A stretch of 64,000 nt of DNA from a virus. The DNA is taken from the IMG/VR virus record IMGVR_UViG_3300022752_000019, positions 64,001-128,000 of that record. One strand, given 5' to 3'. The notes beneath the pieces are model-generated. The model was not told the DNA's origin. It worked only from the letters and a program-made list of their open reading frames with translations, and did not search any database. Below are positions 1 to 13,545 of the stretch, one piece after another (the stretch's first letter is position 1; each line of letters begins with the position of its first letter). The translations under genes and the position numbers were made by a program.

Positions 1-1551
1 GGCTGCAAATAGCAGCTTGGACGATGGGAGGATGTAGTCAACCTCCTTCCACGGACGCTTTGAAGTGTTCCGGTCGCTGTCGTAGACCACGACGTGCGAG
101 GCAAGTGGAGTGACCTTTACCGACCCGTCTGGCTTGCGCTCAACCTTTGCCTGATCAGGGTACGCAACGACAGCATGTTCGAGATCGGCCGCCGTCTTGT
201 GCTCAATCTTGCCTGTGCGCACGTTGACGACTTGCGCATGGAGGTCGTGACCGACCTTCTTTGCTCCAAGTGGGACGTGTAGGATGATGCCCGTGTGCGA
301 GCTTTCTGGAGTCTGAAGAGGGTCAAGCAACCCGAGGTGGCTCGGATTGATCAACTTGTCTTCCATCAGATTGACGTTCTCTCCCTTGATGCCTCCGAAC
401 TCCGCACCGAGGATGGTCGTACGCGTGTGGTTCGAGACAAACTGAAGCGGGTTTGTCTGGGTGGGCAACTGTCCGGCCTTGAAAGGCTTCAGAATGGCAG
501 CTCCGTAGCCGGAGGCGGACGCTGGGATGATGTCCTGGATCGAGGTCTTGCGGTCTACGTTGTTTCGGATCTTGCGAGTCAGGGCGTAGACAGTCTTACC
601 CTTGGTAAGCTCCTCGTAGACATAGTCCTCTGCGCCGAACAGCCTCTTGTTTGAAAGGGACTGCCGGTCATCCTCGGGCACATCGCCACGGCTAATGTCA
701 ACAAGCTTCTTCGCCGAGAGAAGCAACGCCTCTCCGGTGATCTTGTCGAACTCCTTGCCAAATGCGGCCTTCATCGTCTGAGGGCTGACCTCGGCCCCCT
801 CAAAGACTTCCTTGGTGAACTTGGCTGCTTCCGCTACAGAGGGGGCCTTGTAGTTCTCCCCTTCCTTACGTGCCTCGATCGCTTTGTGGAACTTCAGGAT
901 GTCCGTAGGAGAACTCTTGGCGCGGTTAATCTCGAAGATCTTATCGCCAAGCGCACTTCGGATCTTGCTGTCGTCGACACCCATCGCAGACAGAACCGCG
1001 TACACAGGAATCTGGACAGTAGAGGATCCGCTACTCTTGACGTCCATCGTCATCAAGCCAAGCTTCTTCGGATCCTTGCGCTCGATGTAGATGTCGAAAG
1101 AGCCAACCTTGCTCCCTGCCGCGACGTTCCACTTTGCCAGAAGATCGCCGTTCTGCGCTTCGGCATGGTAGGCGCCAGGATTCAGCCGAAATACGCTGTC
1201 CAGCTGCATCTCGTTGCCGTTAACGATGTAGCTGTAGCGAGTTGTGATCTTGGGGATCTTTCCAAGCGTCCGGGGCTTCTCATCAAGAACTTTCCCGGTG
1301 GCCTTGTCGATCAGTCGGAACACTCCGACGATGTCTGGTCCCCATGTCCTGTCATTCAGCCGAGCTTCAAGCTGACTGTTGTAGTTTGCAGGATTGAACT
1401 GCGCCGCTCCGGACGCTGAGCTGTCCTCGACCTCGATGCGCACAAGCTCCAATCGGTGCTTGCTTCCCTCAATCGGAAAGTGAGACGAAATTGCCTCTTT
1501 CGTCTTCTGCACCAGGAGATTGTAGCTTTCAATCGGGTTCAAGTTGGACAT
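1..1551 (-). CDS. rpoB: Phage multisubunit DNA-directed RNA polymerase beta subunit, N-terminal 517 aa (runs off left edge)
   Basis: My translation starts at ATG 1551 (GGAG SD) and stays open to base 1. Motifs match RpoB: LGKIPKITTRYSYIVNGNE (~GEIPLMT..GTFVINGTE), DDRQSLSNKRL (~DDIDHLGNRR), QTNPLQFVSNHTRTTILG..GGI (~[22 protein letters not shown]), INPSHLGLLDPLQTPESSHTG (~[21 protein letters not shown]). Confidence 0.92.
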   Translation of the reverse strand, partial: MSNLNPIESYNLLVQKTKEAISSHFPIEGSKHRLELVRIEVEDSSASGAAQFNPANYNSQLEARLNDRTWGPDIVGVFRLIDKATGKVLDEKPRTLGKIPKITTRYSYIVNGNEMQLDSVFRLNPGAYHAEAQNGDLLAKWNVAAGSKVGSFDIYIERKDPKKLGLMTMDVKSSGSSTVQIPVYAVLSAMGVDDSKIRSALGDKIFEINRAKSSPTDILKFHKAIEARKEGENYKAPSVAEAAKFTKEVFEGAEVSPQTMKAAFGKEFDKITGEALLLSAKKLVDISRGDVPEDDRQSLSNKRLFGAEDYVYEELTKGKTVYALTRKIRNNVDRKTSIQDIIPASASGYGAAILKPFKAGQLPTQTNPLQFVSNHTRTTILGAEFGGIKGENVNLMEDKLINPSHLGLLDPLQTPESSHTGIILHVPLGAKKVGHDLHAQVVNVRTGKIEHKTAADLEHAVVAYPDQAKVERKPDGSVKVTPLASHVVVYDSDRNTSKRPWKEVDYILPSSKLLFAA

Positions 1552-2327: not shown

Positions 2328-4394
2328 TCAGCCGATGGCTCTTCCTGGGTCTGCCTGCGGAGTTCCGTTAGGGGCTGGATTTTGCTGCGCGTTCAGCGGG
2401 TTGACCTGCGATCCCTTGTCATTCATTAGCTGAACAACCAGTTGATACAGCGGTGGGTTCTCAGTCTGCATCTGCTGAAGCGCCTGATACATTGCCTGCT
2501 CACCCTGTTCTTTCTTTAGCGTACGGAAGTACGCGACGGCGCGCTGAGCGACGTACCGCAGGTCTACTCCCCCTGAGCCCGGTTGAATCTGCGACTGAAC
2601 GCCTGCCATGGCAGCAGGCATGCCGGATTCGTTGGGAGCGCCTGCATTTTCTGCATAGGCAGTTGCGCCCTCTGGGAGCCCAGGAGTTTGCTGAGCAGCA
2701 TCGCCAGCCGGGGCCGCCTGCTGCTGTGCAGCGGCTTGCGCGGCGGCTTGCGTGGCGGCTTGCGCGGCGGCGGGGTCTTGTACTCCCATTTGCTGCTGGG
2801 CCTGCTGCATCTGCTGCTGCATCTCCATCTGCGCCTGACCCTGCGCCTTTAGCGTAAGGGCCTGTGCCTTCGCCTGGTAGCGTGAGGTACGAAGCTGCGC
2901 CTCTCCTTGAATGTCGGCAGAGGCAACCTGCATCTTGCGGTTGGCTTGGATCTGCTTCTTGATTTCGCGCCCCATGCGCTCAGATTCAAGATCGAAGTCC
3001 TCGCCCAGTTCCTCCATGAGGCGATGGTCGCTGATCTTCTGCGCTTGGTTGAGCTGGAGGTAGAACATGCTCCTTTGGAGGTCGTCGGCCATGCGGAACT
3101 TGTCGAACCGCGAAGAAACCCGCGGCCACTCCATGAATGCCGCAATCTTCTGCATAATGAAGACGTTGATTAGCTCATGGCGCTGCTTGTTGTAGCCGAG
3201 GAACATGTTCTCGAGCGCGCGGAGCGACGTGCTGGACCCGGACCATTGAAGTCCGCCGAAGATGAACTCCACCGGAATGCCTGCGCCTGCGAGCATCTGT
3301 TCGGCCAGGAGTCTCATCTCCTGGTACATCAGAAGGGCTCGCCCCTGGCCGCCGATCTGCTGGAACCCGATGTTGACAGGTAGGACCGGGATGTAGTTGT
3401 GATCCCGTTTCCACATGTTGATCTCTTCATCGACCCGACGCTTCCAGTTCGTCAGGTTGTAGGCCCCATAAGGCCCTTCATTACCTCCGGTGTTCTGTCC
3501 TGGGAAGATCATCCGCATCGGGACGATATTTTCCATAAGGATCGCTTCGTTCGCCTTCTTCATTACCTGAAGGTAGAACGCGTCCTTCAGGAGCGGGAAG
3601 ATGAGGGGTGTTCCCCAGCCCTGGTCCTTCTGCGCGATTGTCGGGCGCTTCAGGTGGTACAGGTTCTCCTCTGAGAAGAGGAGTGACTTGCCTGCGCGCG
3701 CGGCCTCGAGGAACTCAAGAGGCAGGCTCTCGATCTCGTCACAGTCCCCCATTTTGATGTCGTTGATCACGCTCTTGGGCAGGCGGAAGTAGTACTTCGT
3801 CTGCCCAGTGATCTCGTTGTGCTTGATGTCGATGTTTTCCGGGTTCCAGCGGACCAGTCGAATCTGCCGGAACGAGCGGATGTACACATCGTGCTGCTTG
3901 GCGTAGCCCTCGTGGCCGCAGTCGCACTTGTGCAGGTAGAAGCGAGAGTCGCGCCACTTGTAGCGAAAGCGGTTGGTCTTGGCACGATAGCGTGCCCCGC
4001 AGGAGCTACAGATCAGGTACTTCTCAAAGGGAAGGAACACGGAGACAAACGCGTTCCCGTACACGAAGTAGTCCAGGCCGACCTCGACCTGGAACGAACG
4101 TAGCTTGAGGTGGTCTTCGACCTTCTTGTAGAGCTTGATGACCTCTGGATCATCAGTCTCAAAGATCAGAGGCGTCACCGGATACTCGGCCATCTTTGAA
4201 CAGGCCGCGTTGATCACTGGATTGGTTAGGAAGTAGTACCGGCACCACTTGTGGAGTTCGTGCTGATTGGCCGGAAGAAACTGCTGGGAGATGTCAAAGA
4301 ACGGCGATGGGTAGCGGATGCCAAAGCCTCGCCCACCCTCGGCAGTAACGGGCCGAGGGTTGAAGCGGTTGACCTCGCTTGTGACGACGTTCAT
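2328..4394 (-). CDS. Portal protein with zinc-ribbon insertion and Gln/Ala-rich C-terminus
   Basis: Portal-type motifs NPVINAAC..MAEYP, GLDYFVYGNAFV, LYHLKRP...GWGTPLI and AGAGIPVEFIFGG. Confidence 0.8.
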   Translation of the reverse strand: MNVVTSEVNRFNPRPVTAEGGRGFGIRYPSPFFDISQQFLPANQHELHKWCRYYFLTNPVINAACSKMAEYPVTPLIFETDDPEVIKLYKKVEDHLKLRSFQVEVGLDYFVYGNAFVSVFLPFEKYLICSSCGARYRAKTNRFRYKWRDSRFYLHKCDCGHEGYAKQHDVYIRSFRQIRLVRWNPENIDIKHNEITGQTKYYFRLPKSVINDIKMGDCDEIESLPLEFLEAARAGKSLLFSEENLYHLKRPTIAQKDQGWGTPLIFPLLKDAFYLQVMKKANEAILMENIVPMRMIFPGQNTGGNEGPYGAYNLTNWKRRVDEEINMWKRDHNYIPVLPVNIGFQQIGGQGRALLMYQEMRLLAEQMLAGAGIPVEFIFGGLQWSGSSTSLRALENMFLGYNKQRHELINVFIMQKIAAFMEWPRVSSRFDKFRMADDLQRSMFYLQLNQAQKISDHRLMEELGEDFDLESERMGREIKKQIQANRKMQVASADIQGEAQLRTSRYQAKAQALTLKAQGQAQMEMQQQMQQAQQQMGVQDPAAAQAATQAAAQAAAQQQAAPAGDAAQQTPGLPEGATAYAENAGAPNESGMPAAMAGVQSQIQPGSGGVDLRYVAQRAVAYFRTLKKEQGEQAMYQALQQMQTENPPLYQLVVQLMNDKGSQVNPLNAQQNPAPNGTPQADPGRAIG

Positions 4395-6250
4395 GACTGA
4401 TTGTCCTTTTTCTGCCCGAACGAACTATCGAGCAAGTTTGCAGCGCCGCCAGCAATATCTGCGCCGATATTTTCAGCAGTCGTTCCAATTGCCATTCCGC
4501 CGACTGCCGGAACAATGCCTTTGGCACTGAAGCCTGATCTGCCCGTGTTGGTGAAGAGATTGGACTTACTGAGCCCGAGGTTTCGTCCGCCAAAAAGATG
4601 ACCCGTTGCCGACGCAGTGCCGGCAACTGCCAGTCCCCTTGCAAGTCTTTCTGCGGTACTTCTCTTCTTTCCGGTTTCTGGATCAACCTCCTCAGAGGCA
4701 GCACCGACTCCTCCCAGAACAGGCGCCGCAACTTCCATTACTCGCTCGCCCGGGCCGTAGTACCACATGCCGCGATTTGTTGTTGCAGTGCCTGCGGCAG
4801 CCTGTTCTTGAGCCCGCCTGCCTAAAGTCCGGTACATGCTCTCGATTTTTCCATAGTCAACATTTTGGCCAGCCTGCGCCGCAGAGTCCATTTCATCAAT
4901 TAAAGACCGCAGGCTCTTAGCGGAGTCTTCGTCAAACGCCACGTTTTGGTACTTTTGCCTTCCAGCACTAAGAAATCCTGACCGGCGCAGACTGTCCACG
5001 ATTCCTGGGGAGCCTTGTACCTCATCAAGGGCTTTAAACTGGTCAACTCTACCAACAAGTGGTTTGTTGGCCGCTGCTTGACTACGCAACGTCTCATCTA
5101 AGTTGCGCAAACTTTCCGACATAAGCTCTACTCGCTTAGACTGCGCAGCCCCTCGTGCAAACTCATCGGCTCCTTCTCCTACGTAGCTTGCACCGGTCCT
5201 TAGCCCACGACCCATTGACGTTATGGGCTTAGTTACGACCTCCTTAACTGTGGTCAAGAACTTACCGGCCCGGGCCGGGTTTCTCAGCAACGCGGCGCCG
5301 ATCAATCCCGCGCCGCCTACAGACACCGGATTAACGTGCTTCAAGATTGGAGACGATGGTTGTTTGCTCTGAGTCCCAGGGATCTGTACCTGATCATCAG
5401 GGTTTATAACGTTGTGTGCCGAAATAGCTTTTGGAACATCCGCAATTCCTGCCGTCTTTGTCGCCTGCAATGAAGCAGTGAACTCAAGCAGATCTCCGAT
5501 GCCCTCCATGAGCTTCGATGCGCAGATGTCGTCAGCAGTCTCTTTAAGCGTATGACCGCCGACCGACAGGGCGCGGACAAGCGCCTTCTGAACTCCCGCA
5601 GTCGGGAGTTTCGTGACGACTTTGACTTTGGAGCCGTTGAACTTCTTTTTTAGCTCCTCATCAGGTTCCATCTTCAGAAGGCTGTCGGTGTTGTAACGAT
5701 CGGTGCAGTAGCTACAGAGACCGTCTTCTTTTGGCTCTTCCTCGTTTCCGCACTCACCGCAGACCTGCGTGACCTTTGAGATCAGGGGGTTGAGGAACTC
5801 CAGCGGCTCAGGCACATACCAGATCCCGGACTCGTGAAGCTGCGCCGCCATGTATCGACGCACCTCCTCAGAGAACTCTGGGATGTCGCCGATCGTTCCA
5901 AGGTCCAATCTGATGCGATTCGCAGCATCCACTGCGAGCATTAGGTCGGAGACCGACTGATTGTCGATGTGAGATACGGACGGGATCTTTCCAACGAGCG
6001 CCTGGGAGACCGTGTGGAACGTCTCCCAGCTCGTCCAAAACTGATCGTGGTTGGCGACAGACACCGCCGCCATCAACTTGATCAGAACTACGCGCGGAAT
6101 GTTGATCTTGAGACGGCTCTCCACTGACCGCTTGATGACAAACGGCTCCCACTCCAACGCACCGACACCGAAGAGTCGGAGGTAGGATCGAAGAAGAAGA
6201 AGCGGGTGCGTCTTCTCATTCTTGAAGGTCTGAAGATCAGTAGCCTCCAT
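4391..6250 (-). CDS. Putative virion protein: Cys-containing N-domain, KTAG junction, then Gly-zipper C-terminal module
   Basis: Likely ATG at 6250 overlaps the upstream gene end; ATGA overlap with portal; CGECG/CSYC; Gly-rich hydrophobic segments. Confidence 0.7.
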   Translation of the reverse strand: MEATDLQTFKNEKTHPLLLLRSYLRLFGVGALEWEPFVIKRSVESRLKINIPRVVLIKLMAAVSVANHDQFWTSWETFHTVSQALVGKIPSVSHIDNQSVSDLMLAVDAANRIRLDLGTIGDIPEFSEEVRRYMAAQLHESGIWYVPEPLEFLNPLISKVTQVCGECGNEEEPKEDGLCSYCTDRYNTDSLLKMEPDEELKKKFNGSKVKVVTKLPTAGVQKALVRALSVGGHTLKETADDICASKLMEGIGDLLEFTASLQATKTAGIADVPKAISAHNVINPDDQVQIPGTQSKQPSSPILKHVNPVSVGGAGLIGAALLRNPARAGKFLTTVKEVVTKPITSMGRGLRTGASYVGEGADEFARGAAQSKRVELMSESLRNLDETLRSQAAANKPLVGRVDQFKALDEVQGSPGIVDSLRRSGFLSAGRQKYQNVAFDEDSAKSLRSLIDEMDSAAQAGQNVDYGKIESMYRTLGRRAQEQAAAGTATTNRGMWYYGPGERVMEVAAPVLGGVGAASEEVDPETGKKRSTAERLARGLAVAGTASATGHLFGGRNLGLSKSNLFTNTGRSGFSAKGIVPAVGGMAIGTTAENIGADIAGGAANLLDSSFGQKKDNQS

Positions 6251-7331
6251 TGTTCGTATCCCTGGACTGCGAGGCGAGCCGTGAGAGGAGGATCTGCTGC
6301 TCAAGAGGCATGCCCTTGAAAGTGCCTACCGGATCACGCCGGAATCGCTCAACTACGCTGTCCTCAAAGACATCTTCCAGTCCGGCGTGGCTTGCGGTGC
6401 TGCCCGAGTACCTCTTGAGCATCGACTCCGTAACGTAATCGCCTCCATGAATCCAGGAGTATTCCGCCTGTTTCTCTGTCCCGTAGACAGCCAGGACGGG
6501 GTCCGGGATGTTGTTGCCGTACCGATTCAGGAGCCCTGCCCTCTCATCCATGAGGAACAGCGTCTCCACGACATCATCGGGATCCATCGCCGCTGCCATC
6601 TTGGAAAGGCGAAGGTAGTCGCTCTGGTACTCTGGATTTGCCGTGTACTCCGCTCTCCGCGAAGCGACCTTCTCGAACCTGGGACTCAGCGTAGTCCCGC
6701 TGTAGCGGAAGATGTGATCCGGGACAACGGCGCCCACCGCACTTGCCAGCTTGACAACATCGACTGCGGCCTCATGACGATCGTAGGGATCCAGGTCGTC
6801 CCACTTGCGAATCGTCTCTGAGATCGCATCAAAGGCCGATGCCTGCTTGACCTGGTGGGCGCCAAGGGGCTGCGACATCCCCTTGCCCATCGGGCGGGCA
6901 ATCTGCGAGGGCTCGAAGGACGCAGTCTTGGCATATTGAGTGCTTGACGCGCTCTTCACCAGCACGCGACGTCCATCTCCCGGAAGGTTCTCGCCCTCGT
7001 TTGCCAGAAGGTACAGCGCGGGATGGGACTGAAGCCCGAGATCGTCAGCCGCGTTCAGTAGGTTTGCTGCGGCAACCTTGACGGCCCCGGCAGGGAGATC
7101 GTGCTCCGCGTTGAGCAGATACCACTGAGACAGGAAGGTGTTCCCGGCGTCGTGGCAGGCAAACTTCCTGTGCTCCTTGCCCTGGCTGTCGACGATGATG
7201 AGCGCAAAGTCCCGATCGTACAGGTCATCGCGCTCCTTCCAAGACGCCGTCTTGAGAAACTCAAGCCCGTCCTTCGGCCCAGAAGCGCGGAACAGATCGC
7301 AGAGGTCGTCGTGCTGGTCTACCACTGGCAT
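6237..7331 (-). CDS. Putative head-associated protein rich in K-x-A motifs
   Basis: ATG 7331 with AGGGG SD; first gene of the portal operon; 10 of 17 Lys are in K-x-A. Confidence 0.7.
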   Translation of the reverse strand: MPVVDQHDDLCDLFRASGPKDGLEFLKTASWKERDDLYDRDFALIIVDSQGKEHRKFACHDAGNTFLSQWYLLNAEHDLPAGAVKVAAANLLNAADDLGLQSHPALYLLANEGENLPGDGRRVLVKSASSTQYAKTASFEPSQIARPMGKGMSQPLGAHQVKQASAFDAISETIRKWDDLDPYDRHEAAVDVVKLASAVGAVVPDHIFRYSGTTLSPRFEKVASRRAEYTANPEYQSDYLRLSKMAAAMDPDDVVETLFLMDERAGLLNRYGNNIPDPVLAVYGTEKQAEYSWIHGGDYVTESMLKRYSGSTASHAGLEDVFEDSVVERFRRDPVGTFKGMPLEQQILLSRLASQSRDTNNGGY

Positions 7332-7364
7332 CTTTTTATCCCCTGAAAGGTCGAGTGCAGGTCT

Positions 7365-7382
7365 CATTATACGCAGTCATAA
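7365..7382. promoter_or_regulatory. Divergent promoter region: AGTCATAA on plus, TATAAT on minus
   Basis: CATTATACGCAGTCATAA lies between divergent starts at 7331 and 7415; the TAAA element is absent here. Confidence 0.5.
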
Positions 7383-10653: not shown

Positions 10654-10900
10654 TGTCCGCATCGACATCGTCCGCGTAGAGGTCACTCCTGCTTCCGCTG
10701 AGATCAAGGTAGCCTACCTTCTGAGCCTAAAGAACAAGGTCTTTGAGGGTGCGGTTGCCGGAGGGGAGACCCAGTTCTCGAATGAGACACTGGGTCTCCA
10801 GCTCTTAGAGCTGGTTGAGAAGATCCGGGTCCAGATCGAACAAGATCTGGGCCTGACTTCCGCATCAGAGAATTCTGTGGAAGAAGAGGACCCATTGTAA
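10631..10900 (+). CDS. Hypothetical protein
   Basis: GAGG SD; stop overlaps the dnaB ATG (TAATG). Confidence 0.6.
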   Translation: MENSRGSDVRIDIVRVEVTPASAEIKVAYLLSLKNKVFEGAVAGGETQFSNETLGLQLLELVEKIRVQIEQDLGLTSASENSVEEEDPL

Positions 10901-13545
10901 TGCCGCATCCGGAACTTGAGCTGATTAGCAACATCCTGAACTCGGGTGACTTCAACACGCCCAAGAAGAAGGGGTTGACCGCTGAGTGGTTTACACTGGA
11001 AGCTGCAAAAGACGCGTATCAGTGGCTGTGGGACGAGTACCACGACCCGCAACAGCGCGGAGAAGTGCCGACCGTTGATCGGTTCCTGCGGAAGTTCCCC
11101 AGCTTCGACTACGCGCCCAGCCGGAACTCGTTGAACGCCCTCATCACGGATGTGCGGACGTCGAAGGTCCAGGCAGACCTTCAACACATGCTGAACGAGA
11201 TGCAGGACGAGTTGGTGGATGGAGAAGATCCTTCCCTCATCCTCGACTCCTTCCTGCCGAAATTCCGGCGTATGAATGTGGAGGCGCACGAGGACGACGG
11301 CATCCTCTTGTCGTCCTCCGTTGCAATCCTAAAACAGCAGTACTCCACCCATGCCGAGTCTGGCGGTGTCGTCGGCATCCCGTACCCGTGGGAGATCTTG
11401 AACCAAAAGACCGGCGGTATGCGGGATGAGGAGTTCATTGTCATCTACGGCAGACCCGCAAACATGAAATGCGTGGTAGAGGGACAACGCATCATGATGC
11501 CCAACGGCGACATGATCCCGATTGAGGACCTTCCAGACCTCTGTACTGTCTCCTCATTCACAGATGCGACCATGAGCATGCGCTGGGCAGCAGCCCGGCG
11601 CGTGGTTAGCGGAGAAAAGGAGTGCGTTCGGGTGACGACGGAGAGCGGCCGCGTCATTGAGACAAGTACCGAGCACTACTTCATGGTCCCTGAAGGCTCC
11701 TTTGAAGGGAAGTACGACAGGATTCGAGACCTGCATGTTGGCAGTTGGATTGCTACTGCCCGCAGCGTCCCAGATTGGTCTTCGGAAAACCATGACCCTA
11801 AGCTGGGATGGCTTCTGGGCGCCCTGACGGGTGATGGGAACTACACACGAAGCGAGGTTCAATTCACCAATCACGATTCCGACGTGGTGTCCTCGCTTAG
11901 GTCCATCGCCCTCACGTACAACTGTAAGGTAAACAGTGGGAGCGTGGAGGGCGAATACCGGGTCGTGTCCTACGATACCCACAAGAACAAGATCTTGGAT
12001 CTACTCCGAGAGCTTGGGATGCACGGAAAGAAAGGGCCTGAGAAAGAAGTCCCGTCTTGGATTTTCCGATCCTCTCGTCAGACGATCGCGGCTTACTTGG
12101 GCGGTCTGTTGGACACCGATGGGACCGTTCGCAGCGCGTCTCCGTCTCGAGTCGCCTGGTACACTTCAAGCCCGAAGCTGGCCCGAGACATCCAGCATCT
12201 CTTGATGCGACTCGGCATCTCCCGGGCCGGAATCTCTGTTGATGCTGCAAAAGAGCAGCGGCAGATTTCCGTGTATGGCCCTGACCAGTACCGCATCCTG
12301 TTGAAAGTACTGGGCCCGTATTTGAGCTGCATGCGTAAGCGCACGGCACTCGAGGATCTCGCCAAAGAAACGGGAACCTCTCCAAATAACGACGGGATTC
12401 CCTGCTCTCGCAGACTGGAGGGACTGATCCTGGAGAAGAAGGGAGCACGTCTCTGGCCCCGGATGGGCAACTCGAAGCTGGATCGCTCCAAACTCTTCCG
12501 CAGGAGCGGATGCATCAGCCGCGCACTCCTCGAGAAGATGGCAACAGAATGGGGATCTGCCGAGTTGGCACTGGAGGCCCAGACACAGATTCGATGGGAG
12601 CGAATCAAGTCAATTGAACCGATTGGTAGAAAGCCCTGCTACGACGTCTGTATTCAGGACGGCCAAGATCCGAACTTCGTTGTCGAAGACTTCGTCGTTC
12701 ACAATACGTGGGCCGCGTGCGCGATTGCAGCGCATGCGTACCTTACGAACCATCGTGTGATGGTCTTCTCGAAGGAGATCTCACGCGAAGCCATGCTCAC
12801 GCGAATCTCGTCTATTCTGGGCAACGTGGACTACGACCGCCTCCGTCGCGGCTTGCTGTCCGAGGAAGACGCCGAAGAGTTCTTTGAGCTGATGGAGGAG
12901 CTTGCAGAGACCGAGGAAGACGAGAGCGTGGGTGCGCACCATCGCGCGCTCCTGTTCATGTCCGACAAGGGAAAGAAGTCGGGTAGTACCGTCGAAGACC
13001 TGATTGCGGCTGCCGAGCGGTTCCAGCCAGACCTGATCGTAGTCGACGGCTTCTACCTCATGCGCGACGGAAGGTCCGGGCAAAGAACGGCTGACTGGAA
13101 GCAGATTAGCCACATCAGCCAAGACCTCAAAGGCATGGCTCAGTTTGTTGGTTGTCCCGTCGTTGGTACGACGCAGGCCAATCGCGCGAATGCCAAAGAG
13201 CCCACTGGCGACGTTGATGACCTGTCGTTTGCGGACGGCATCGGCCAAGACGCAGACATCGCGTTCCGCGTATTCAAGGGACCAAACCCTTCGGGGAGAG
13301 GAGCCTCCCTTCTTTTTGTGTTCAGCAAGAGTAGAGAGACAGTGATTCCCCCGTTCATCATCAATGCTTCTCCCGGCTCAGACTTCAGCGTGCAGCAGGC
13401 CCATGCGAACGTGAAGGCGTTCCTTGAGTTGAAGGCGCAGATGGAGATGTCCGAGGGCGCTGACGGTGACGAGGGCGGGGGCGGCGGAGGTAAGAAGGAA
13501 GAGAAGAAAAAGCCCAAGAAGAGAGATGACCCCTTCAGAGCCTGA
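10900..13545 (+). CDS. dnaB: Replicative DnaB-family helicase, intein-containing
   Basis: GIPYPW..LN..TGG, Walker A GRPANMK|T split by the intein, FSKEIS, LIVVDGFYLM, ISQDLKGMA, TTQANR, IGQDAD. Confidence 0.92.
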   Translation: MPHPELELISNILNSGDFNTPKKKGLTAEWFTLEAAKDAYQWLWDEYHDPQQRGEVPTVDRFLRKFPSFDYAPSRNSLNALITDVRTSKVQADLQHMLNEMQDELVDGEDPSLILDSFLPKFRRMNVEAHEDDGILLSSSVAILKQQYSTHAESGGVVGIPYPWEILNQKTGGMRDEEFIVIYGRPANMKCVVEGQRIMMPNGDMIPIEDLPDLCTVSSFTDATMSMRWAAARRVVSGEKECVRVTTESGRVIETSTEHYFMVPEGSFEGKYDRIRDLHVGSWIATARSVPDWSSENHDPKLGWLLGALTGDGNYTRSEVQFTNHDSDVVSSLRSIALTYNCKVNSGSVEGEYRVVSYDTHKNKILDLLRELGMHGKKGPEKEVPSWIFRSSRQTIAAYLGGLLDTDGTVRSASPSRVAWYTSSPKLARDIQHLLMRLGISRAGISVDAAKEQRQISVYGPDQYRILLKVLGPYLSCMRKRTALEDLAKETGTSPNNDGIPCSRRLEGLILEKKGARLWPRMGNSKLDRSKLFRRSGCISRALLEKMATEWGSAELALEAQTQIRWERIKSIEPIGRKPCYDVCIQDGQDPNFVVEDFVVHNTWAACAIAAHAYLTNHRVMVFSKEISREAMLTRISSILGNVDYDRLRRGLLSEEDAEEFFELMEELAETEEDESVGAHHRALLFMSDKGKKSGSTVEDLIAAAERFQPDLIVVDGFYLMRDGRSGQRTADWKQISHISQDLKGMAQFVGCPVVGTTQANRANAKEPTGDVDDLSFADGIGQDADIAFRVFKGPNPSGRGASLLFVFSKSRETVIPPFIINASPGSDFSVQQAHANVKAFLELKAQMEMSEGADGDEGGGGGGKKEEKKKPKKRDDPFRA
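11470..12705 (+). mobile_element. Intein (412 aa) with LAGLIDADG homing endonuclease
   Basis: Starts CVVEGQRI; block B TSTEHYF; LLGALTGDG and YLGGLLDTDG; ends FVVHN followed by Thr. Confidence 0.95.

Follow-up and report, generated by a model that had tools for sequence, protein, structure and literature searches.

The stretch of DNA analysed here (the window) comprises 64,000 nucleotides (nt), positions 64001-128000 of a single 164,603-bp contig of an uncultured phage (IMG/VR record IMGVR_UViG_3300022752_000019). Its minus strand carries the portal operon, whose first gene encodes a protein of 364 amino acids (aa) that is unusually rich in the tripeptide Lys-any residue-Ala (K-x-A). This protein and its family are the subject of the present analysis. 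With slightly better than even confidence, built on sequences, structural models and analogy with other viruses, we regard it as a sacrificial prohead-core or assembly protein that would be cut at multiple sites by a protease of the gp21/assemblin fold, at K-x-A followed by Ser, Ala or Gly. The plus strand at the position of the gene translates with stop codons, while the minus strand is open and yields 376 aa from an ATG at 7367 or 364 aa from an ATG at 7331. All close homologs begin at the same Met-Pro-Val as the product of ATG 7331, and the longer start would be excluded because a TATAAT sits 35 nt upstream of the shorter one. The coordinates of the features are collected in Table 1.

Table 1. 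Features of the portal operon and of the 364-aa protein; positions refer to the window unless stated otherwise.
Feature	Coordinates	Strand	Remarks
Single-chain RNA polymerase beta-beta' gene, N-terminal part	1..1551	-	downstream in the same gene column as the 364-aa protein
Portal protein	2328..4394	-	688 aa; similarity to annotated portals
Next gene after that of the 364-aa protein	4391..6250	-	start overlaps the end of the preceding gene by 14 nt; two-gene fusion
Gene of the 364-aa protein	6237..7331	-	364 aa + stop; first gene of the portal operon
C-terminal helical domain	6261..6839	-	residues 165-357; K194, K221, K244, K287, R351-L-A-S
R351-L-A, then S	6273..6281	-	Arg variant of the motif; R in 189/224, A in 196/224 family members
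Site K287-Q-A, then E	6465..6473	-	186/224 members; loop before strand 292
Lineage-variable in-helix sites	6594..6752	-	K194-L-A-S 78/224; K221-V-A-S 32/224; K244-M-A-A 92/224
Disordered linker	6840..6956	-	residues 126-164, pLDDT about 40; K-x-A-S at K126, K135, K162
N-terminal domain	6957..7331	-	residues 1-125, alpha/beta, pLDDT mostly 80-96; holds K27, K56, K85
Site K85-V-A, then A	7071..7079	-	190/224 members; inside helix 81-98
Site K56-F-A, then C	7158..7166	-	215/224 members; beta-strand end
Site K27-T-A, then S	7245..7253	-	K and A together in 201/224 members; helix end
Ribosome-binding site GGGGA	7339..7343	-	7 nt before ATG 7331
Promoter-like elements upstream of the gene	7366..7382	-	CTTATGAC 7375-7382; TATAAT 7366-7371
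Head protease, 560 aa	genome 43652-45334 (outside the window)		AlphaFold2 pLDDT 73; folded core residues 42-291

The original prediction, made from the letters of the DNA, had placed this gene at the head of the portal operon, and our analysis agrees. The 688-aa product encoded two open reading frames (ORFs) downstream is a portal by its similarity to the annotated portal of Salmonella phage Arash (32% identity, E 1e-84), and the portal of Bacillus phage G also matches. The gene order is conserved as well: around homologs of 72%, 55%, 40% and 28% identity, the gene of the 364-aa protein is followed by variable genes, then by one of portal size (about 680 aa, judged solely on length) and by the RNA polymerase gene.

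The translation contains 17 Lys, of which 10 are K-x-A and six K-x-A-S, exactly as the original prediction had listed them: KTAS27, KFAC56, KVAA85, KSAS126, KTAS135, KQAS162, KLAS194, KVAS221, KMAA244 and KQAE287. The excess over what the Ala content would give was also borne out. The binomial p was 2.4e-6 for K-x-A and 4e-9 for K-x-A-S, and 200,000 shuffles of the sequence gave a mean of 1.87 K-x-A and a maximum of 9, so that 10 was never reached. Among the 178 ORFs of the genome this protein is the most enriched (p 9e-6 when counted from the longer start), which survives Bonferroni correction, while K-x-A genome-wide stays at background (234 of 2153 Lys, or 10.9%, versus an Ala frequency of 9.3%, in our own ORF call). 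Since the motif was picked after the sequence had been seen, its replication in homologs outweighs these p-values. The nucleotide pattern AAR-NNN-GCN occurs 10, 0 and 0 times in the three frames of the gene, and the Ala codons at the sites vary (GCG, GCC, GCA and GCT), as do the Ser codons. The confinement of the pattern to the coding frame, together with the varied codons, indicates selection at the protein level rather than a DNA motif. K27, K56 and K85 are spaced exactly 29 residues apart; an internal repeat, to which this spacing could have pointed, was rejected, as the three segments are dissimilar to one another by eye.

We found 98 close metagenomic homologs, on contigs of up to 199 kb, and a profile search returned 1,947 cluster representatives (50% identity) at E<=1e-3, of which 679 were found at E<=1e-30. 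The protein and its family profile gave no match in Pfam, PHROGs or the PDB sequences, and tblastn of the protein against 50,697 cultured-phage records gave no homolog. A Pfam scan of ten long members with big inserts returned one DUF5661 and one weak match to the T4 RNA ligase 2 C-terminal domain, nothing useful. All homologs of 320-430 aa carry 6-12 K-x-A, down to 28% identity. Another 135 representatives, with pairwise identities below 50%, had 1612 K-x-A among their 4371 Lys (37%) versus 512 expected; the same test gave 13% for Arg and 5-12% for other residues. The residue after Ala (position P1' of a presumed cleavage site, in which Ala is P1 and Lys P3) is enriched family-wide for Ser (3.8-fold) and Cys (11-fold), and more weakly for Ala and Gly; L, V, I, K, R, P, F and Y are depleted 3- to 5-fold. 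The Arg version of the motif near the C-terminus, R-L-A-S, is the sole conserved one of its kind in the family. Conservation of the motif, which the original prediction had proposed to look for in homolog alignments, is present.

One profile alignment of 224 members showed that only K27, K56, K85 and K287 are near-universal. K194, K221, K244 and the linker sites are present in 5-92 of the 224, and other lineages use other columns; despite this turnover the median K-x-A count per member stays at 11. Cutting the 364-aa protein at each K-x-A would give pieces of 29, 29, 29, 41, 9, 27, 32, 27, 23, 43 and 75 residues, the last of which holds R351-L-A-S and is otherwise without K-x-A. Across the 224 members the coefficient of variation of fragment size has a median of 0.55 versus 0.87 under random placement, the largest fragment has a median of 75 residues versus 111, and 62% of members fall within the lowest 5% of random placements for evenness; since the members share kinship, this comparison is descriptive. 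Judged from the sequences, the even spacing fits selection against any long leftover piece.

The AlphaFold2 model of the protein (55 sequences; mean predicted local distance difference test, pLDDT, 85) is confident and shows two folded domains, at residues 1-125 and 163-357, between which residues 130-162 form a disordered linker. Foldseek found no match for it in the PDB, a BFVD search returned only two uncharacterised phage proteins, and in a VIA-wide fold search the best Z was 6.0, with generic helical bundles. A likeness of residues 298-364 to the helix-turn-helix domains of Aca11 and AcrIIA15 (Z 5.6 and 4.9) was within noise and was rejected. The linker is 15-82 residues long in the aligned set of relatives and far longer in some, such as the 601-aa homolog P0041. 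It is hypervariable and unalignable, being of glycine-zipper type in some relatives and Met/Pro/Gly-rich in others. Nevertheless, in the 67 members with locatable domain boundaries 114 of 221 linker Lys are K-x-A versus 36 expected. A K-x-A stands no more than 9 residues from the linker start in 49 of the 67 and just before the C-terminal domain in 53, and this flanking is retained around the glycine-zipper inserts. A short motif that survives where the chain is disordered and evolves fast has a reader in trans and is no packing feature, which makes the linker the most telling part of the protein.

These properties of the linker bear on a different reading, namely limited processing, in which only K126, K135 and K162 are cut and the K-x-A triplets within the domains are protected and stay uncut. 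The protein would then amount to a small polyprotein, whose products, two stable domains and a variable linker peptide, would persist in the head or be injected. The linker is the sole clearly disordered region and has three K-x-A-S sites, relatives insert unrelated modules in it, nearly always between K-x-A sites, and both domains are strongly conserved and confidently folded. Moreover, the downstream ORF has a K-T-A-G exactly at a gene-fusion joint. We nonetheless consider limited processing unlikely; it leaves unexplained the 37% K-x-A in the folded parts, the failure of Arg to substitute for Lys, the turnover of sites at a kept count, and the even spacing. A more specific proposal, to which we give an equally low probability, is that the family is a carrier. 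Its two domains would load into the prohead, and the slot fenced by K-x-A would hold lineage-specific small peptides that the protease frees and that are delivered to the host with the DNA. The contents of the slot would be glycine-zipper segments, which look membrane-active, Met/Pro-rich segments, or larger modules.

The genome's other K-x-A-enriched ORFs are all found outside the portal operon, in the head module, which is located further down that strand. Their products have 446 aa (12 of 27 Lys in the motif), 501, 321 and 376 aa, and for the first of these Pfam gave a weak, sub-threshold match to a rod domain of coiled-coil type. Background levels were seen in the RNA polymerase (10 of 188 Lys) and likewise in the tail proteins. 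For the phage's capsid protein, the match to that of Arash has E 1e-17, and a PHROG family of major head proteins matches weakly. In 119 of 120 homologs of the capsid protein, a leader of 22 residues is followed by K23-T-A-A, which precedes the conserved body, and the Arash capsid protein has K27-E-A-G at the matching place.

The head protease was identified by its predicted fold. Against 48,161 chains (VIA-align), T4 gp21 (5jbl_A) came out on top (Z 9.4, root-mean-square deviation 2.8, 132 aa), followed by the proteases of varicella-zoster virus (Z 7.8), human cytomegalovirus (6.1) as well as Kaposi's sarcoma-associated herpesvirus (5.1), with unrelated chains at 5.0 or below. Foldseek gave the same ranking with weak E-values (best 0.05). 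In proteases of the gp21/assemblin fold the substrate is bound in strand form, and P3 and P1 are the positions recognised. The candidate catalytic residues H138 and S194 showed no variation in an alignment of 38 homologs, and gp21 has a similar His-Ser spacing. Conserved K-T-A-S (37-40) and K-I-A-S (293-296) lie in the disordered segments that flank the fold; prohead proteases commonly trim themselves just before or after the fold. An alignment profile of the protease run against the PDB sequences gave only a chance zinc-finger match. The fold also contains a C204-x2-C207 ... C218-x-H220 cluster that is invariant and resembles a zinc site. A complex prediction for the protease domain with the linker of the 364-aa protein scored 0.03, which is no answer and no evidence either way.

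Homologs of the 560-aa protease were found in Arash (gp222, 3e-37) and in phage G (gp19, 4e-14), the latter of which has been named head maturation protease (PMC12484599). A 'capsid maturation protease' of Gordonia phage Stormageddon also matched (4e-4), and PHROG 18299 did so weakly (E 0.0011). In the 88 kb of Arash that were sampled, the only K-x-A-enriched ORFs are gp220 (10 of 21 Lys), the protease homolog gp222, gp223 (8 of 17) and gp225 (7 of 13), and all lie just upstream of the capsid gene, in the Arash region 141765-160583. The Arash 'structural proteins' gp220, gp223 and gp225 resemble the 364-aa protein in being rich in K-x-A-(S/A/G) beside a homologous protease and capsid gene. They differ from it in being non-homologous and in standing in the protease-capsid block rather than in the portal operon. 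In phage G (region 9000-32000), the motif accounts for 8 of the 32 Lys of gp19, with KIAG, KTAA and KIAP before its domain and KVAS and KIAS directly after it. The acidic gp21 of phage G, downstream of gp19, shows the motif at 7 of its 51 Lys, and the phage G capsid protein gp27 lacks it. This replication in Arash and G indicates that the motif tracks the protease lineage across three distant phages.

A motif that follows a protease could be bound rather than cut. K-x-A would then be a docking or targeting motif, for example for multivalent attachment to the protease, the scaffold or the capsid interior, and the 364-aa protein would remain intact as an adaptor. The capsid-targeting sequence of T4 coincides with the cleavage site, so one short motif can serve loading (PMC9026906), and in the present genome the motif also marks the N-terminal leaders of unrelated proteins. 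However, the P3-x-P1 geometry and small P1' of K-x-A are those that a site cut by a protease of this fold should have, the motif is located where propeptide sites and self-processing sites of the protease are expected, and if it served for binding alone there would be no need to space it evenly. We consider docking without cutting rather improbable, more so than limited processing.

Among known head-maturation systems, T4 gp21 cuts after L/I-x-E and the phiKZ protease after S/A-x-E (PMC9026906, PMC10052503), and SPN3US cuts after A-x-E (PMC10052503). In T4, virion components lose a short N-terminal propeptide, while gp22, gp67 and gp68 are cut into many fragments that mostly leave the head (PMC9026906). 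By this rule, that the position of cutting correlates with function, a protein with sites along its whole length would be a core or assembly protein destined for destruction. The 364-aa protein resembles gp22, gp67 and gp68 in its company of head genes, in the proposed protease of the same fold and in a short, presumed P3-x-P1 motif along the chain. It differs from these T4 cores in the motif itself (K-x-A versus L/I-x-E for gp21) and in its globular two-domain build with a variable insert, and its gene heads the portal operon instead of standing beside the protease; no sequence or fold similarity between the two was found. The internal head proteins that are processed by gp175 in phiKZ and by gp245 in SPN3US likewise belong to large phages and have several redundant S/A-x-E sites. 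In those phages P1 is Glu rather than Ala, and what cutting takes off is mostly an N-terminal propeptide, so that a mature body is left, whereas the sites of the 364-aa protein span its whole length. Both phages package RNA polymerase in the virion (PMC10052503, PMC9026906), and Arash also carries one there (PMC10585845).

The predicted assemblin sites of herpesviruses have Ala followed by Ser or Thr, as in YLQA-T and VQA-S of pseudorabies virus (PMC4498786). The R- and M-sites of pUL26 and pUL26.5 are thus alike in P1 Ala and P1' Ser/Thr, and the protease folds match. The present motif differs in its P3, which is Lys with Arg rarely substituting, while the quoted herpesvirus sites have a non-basic P3. 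Herpesvirus substrates also have one or two sites each, versus about ten in the 364-aa protein.

Under the reading that we favour, the protein would be made together with the portal and would be internal to the prohead, where its two conserved domains would act during head assembly. The protease would cut after the Ala of K-x-A, with Lys at P3, Ala at P1 and a small, mostly Ser, P1'. Cutting would begin at the exposed linker sites and reach those within the domains as the protein unfolds. It would yield about 11 peptides of 9-75 residues, whose small size would let them exit the shell or remain as internal peptides. Three steps in this are ones that we infer: K-x-A is probably the site of the head protease, and the protein probably enters the prohead and is probably cut. 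The proposal in the original prediction that the protein is cut into pieces gains indirect support from the conservation of the motif, its retention in linkers, the even spacing, the sites in the capsid protein and protease, and the replication in Arash and G.

Several observations weigh against this reading. Six of the sites are in coil or at the last residue of a secondary-structure element, but K85, K194, K221 and K244 sit 2-8 residues inside predicted helices, and overall the sites are no nearer to loops or element ends than random positions (p 0.56). At the helix sites the Ala falls on a stripe of conserved small or hydrophobic residues (A83/A87/N90-L91/A94; Y239/L242/A246/M249). The Ala at these sites is probably buried and the Lys exposed, as deduced from the pattern of conservation, and such sites would need unfolding before cutting. 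The original prediction had itself held that motifs buried in a folded core would speak against it, and for these four of the ten sites this is probably in part the case. The four universal sites could be kept for structural reasons alone. P1' is not always small at the most conserved sites: 52 members have His there at site 27, and Glu follows at site 287. As a conserved globular protein of two domains, the 364-aa protein is also unlike classical scaffolds, and the 446-aa motif-rich coiled-coil protein that adjoins the protease is a more canonical scaffold candidate. Of the original designation 'scaffold or core', we therefore retain core or assembly protein and regard scaffold as imprecise. 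The family is absent from Arash and phage G, though both share the protease and the motif. The Arash virion proteome paper (116 'virion' proteins) and its supplements give no peptide positions, and its 'coverage' column is unusable for termini. Finally, over 20 kb separate the gene from those of the protease and the capsid protein, and its neighbour, at a distance of 84 bp, is a divergent replication module (helicase, UDG and DnaB with an intein).

Some of the same observations would suit an explanation unrelated to head maturation, in which K-x-A is a structural or functional feature of the fold, such as helix packing or Lys modification, and the protein acts in replication or transcription. 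Its gene diverges from the replication module and is located upstream of that for the RNA polymerase, the four universal sites lie in folded parts where invariant small residues are typical of packing, and no fold match assigns a head function. But the motif is kept in disordered, unalignable linkers and at lineage-specific positions, and in three distant phages its enrichment is confined to proteins of the head module. We regard this explanation as very unlikely, the least probable of those considered here.

Further observations concern the neighbouring genes and the putative promoters. ORF 4391-6250 unites two genes that relatives carry separately (264 and 352 aa), and K-T-A-G stands where they meet. 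The 264-aa partner has a Cys-rich motif and the 352-aa partner is Gly-rich; in relatives this second protein begins with an F-x-x-E-M-x-K-L-S leader and not with K-T-A-G. Arash gp199, which is in the position equivalent to that of the 364-aa protein, is unrelated to it (hhalign probability 0.1). Inteins with LAGLIDADG homing-endonuclease domains were found in the DnaB-type helicase (window 10900-13545, plus strand) and in the large terminase (genome 48167-51187, minus strand), and the DnaB of a relative also carries an intein.

The element TTATGAC has 26 copies in the genome versus about 11 expected, mostly intergenic and often followed by a T-run about 12-20 nt later. Copies are present upstream of the gene of the 364-aa protein, the RNA polymerase gene, the terminase (TerL) gene and many small genes. 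Besides that at window 7366-7382, the copies include those at genome positions 65578, 51203 and 123777 and a cluster at 143-158 kb. The element probably serves as a promoter of the phage itself. Presumed early genes and virion genes both have it, and the time at which the 364-aa protein is expressed therefore does not follow from it. TATAAT, by comparison, is strongly depleted, with 6 copies in 164.6 kb versus roughly 28 expected by our estimate from base composition.

If the carrier proposal were true, it would represent a widespread and unrecognised phage route for making and delivering small effector peptides. If the reading as a sacrificial core or assembly protein is true, K-x-A followed by Ser, Ala or Gly would be a new substrate code for an ancient protease fold common to tailed phages and herpesviruses, one that pairs a herpesvirus-like Ala/Ser bond with a basic P3. 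The code is open to testing in the cultured phages Arash and G. The reading would also give the first functional handle on an unannotated family of about 1,950 clusters (50% identity), and would make processed head proteins and released peptides predictable purely from sequence throughout a widespread clade of uncultured phages of 100-200 kb that package their own RNA polymerase.

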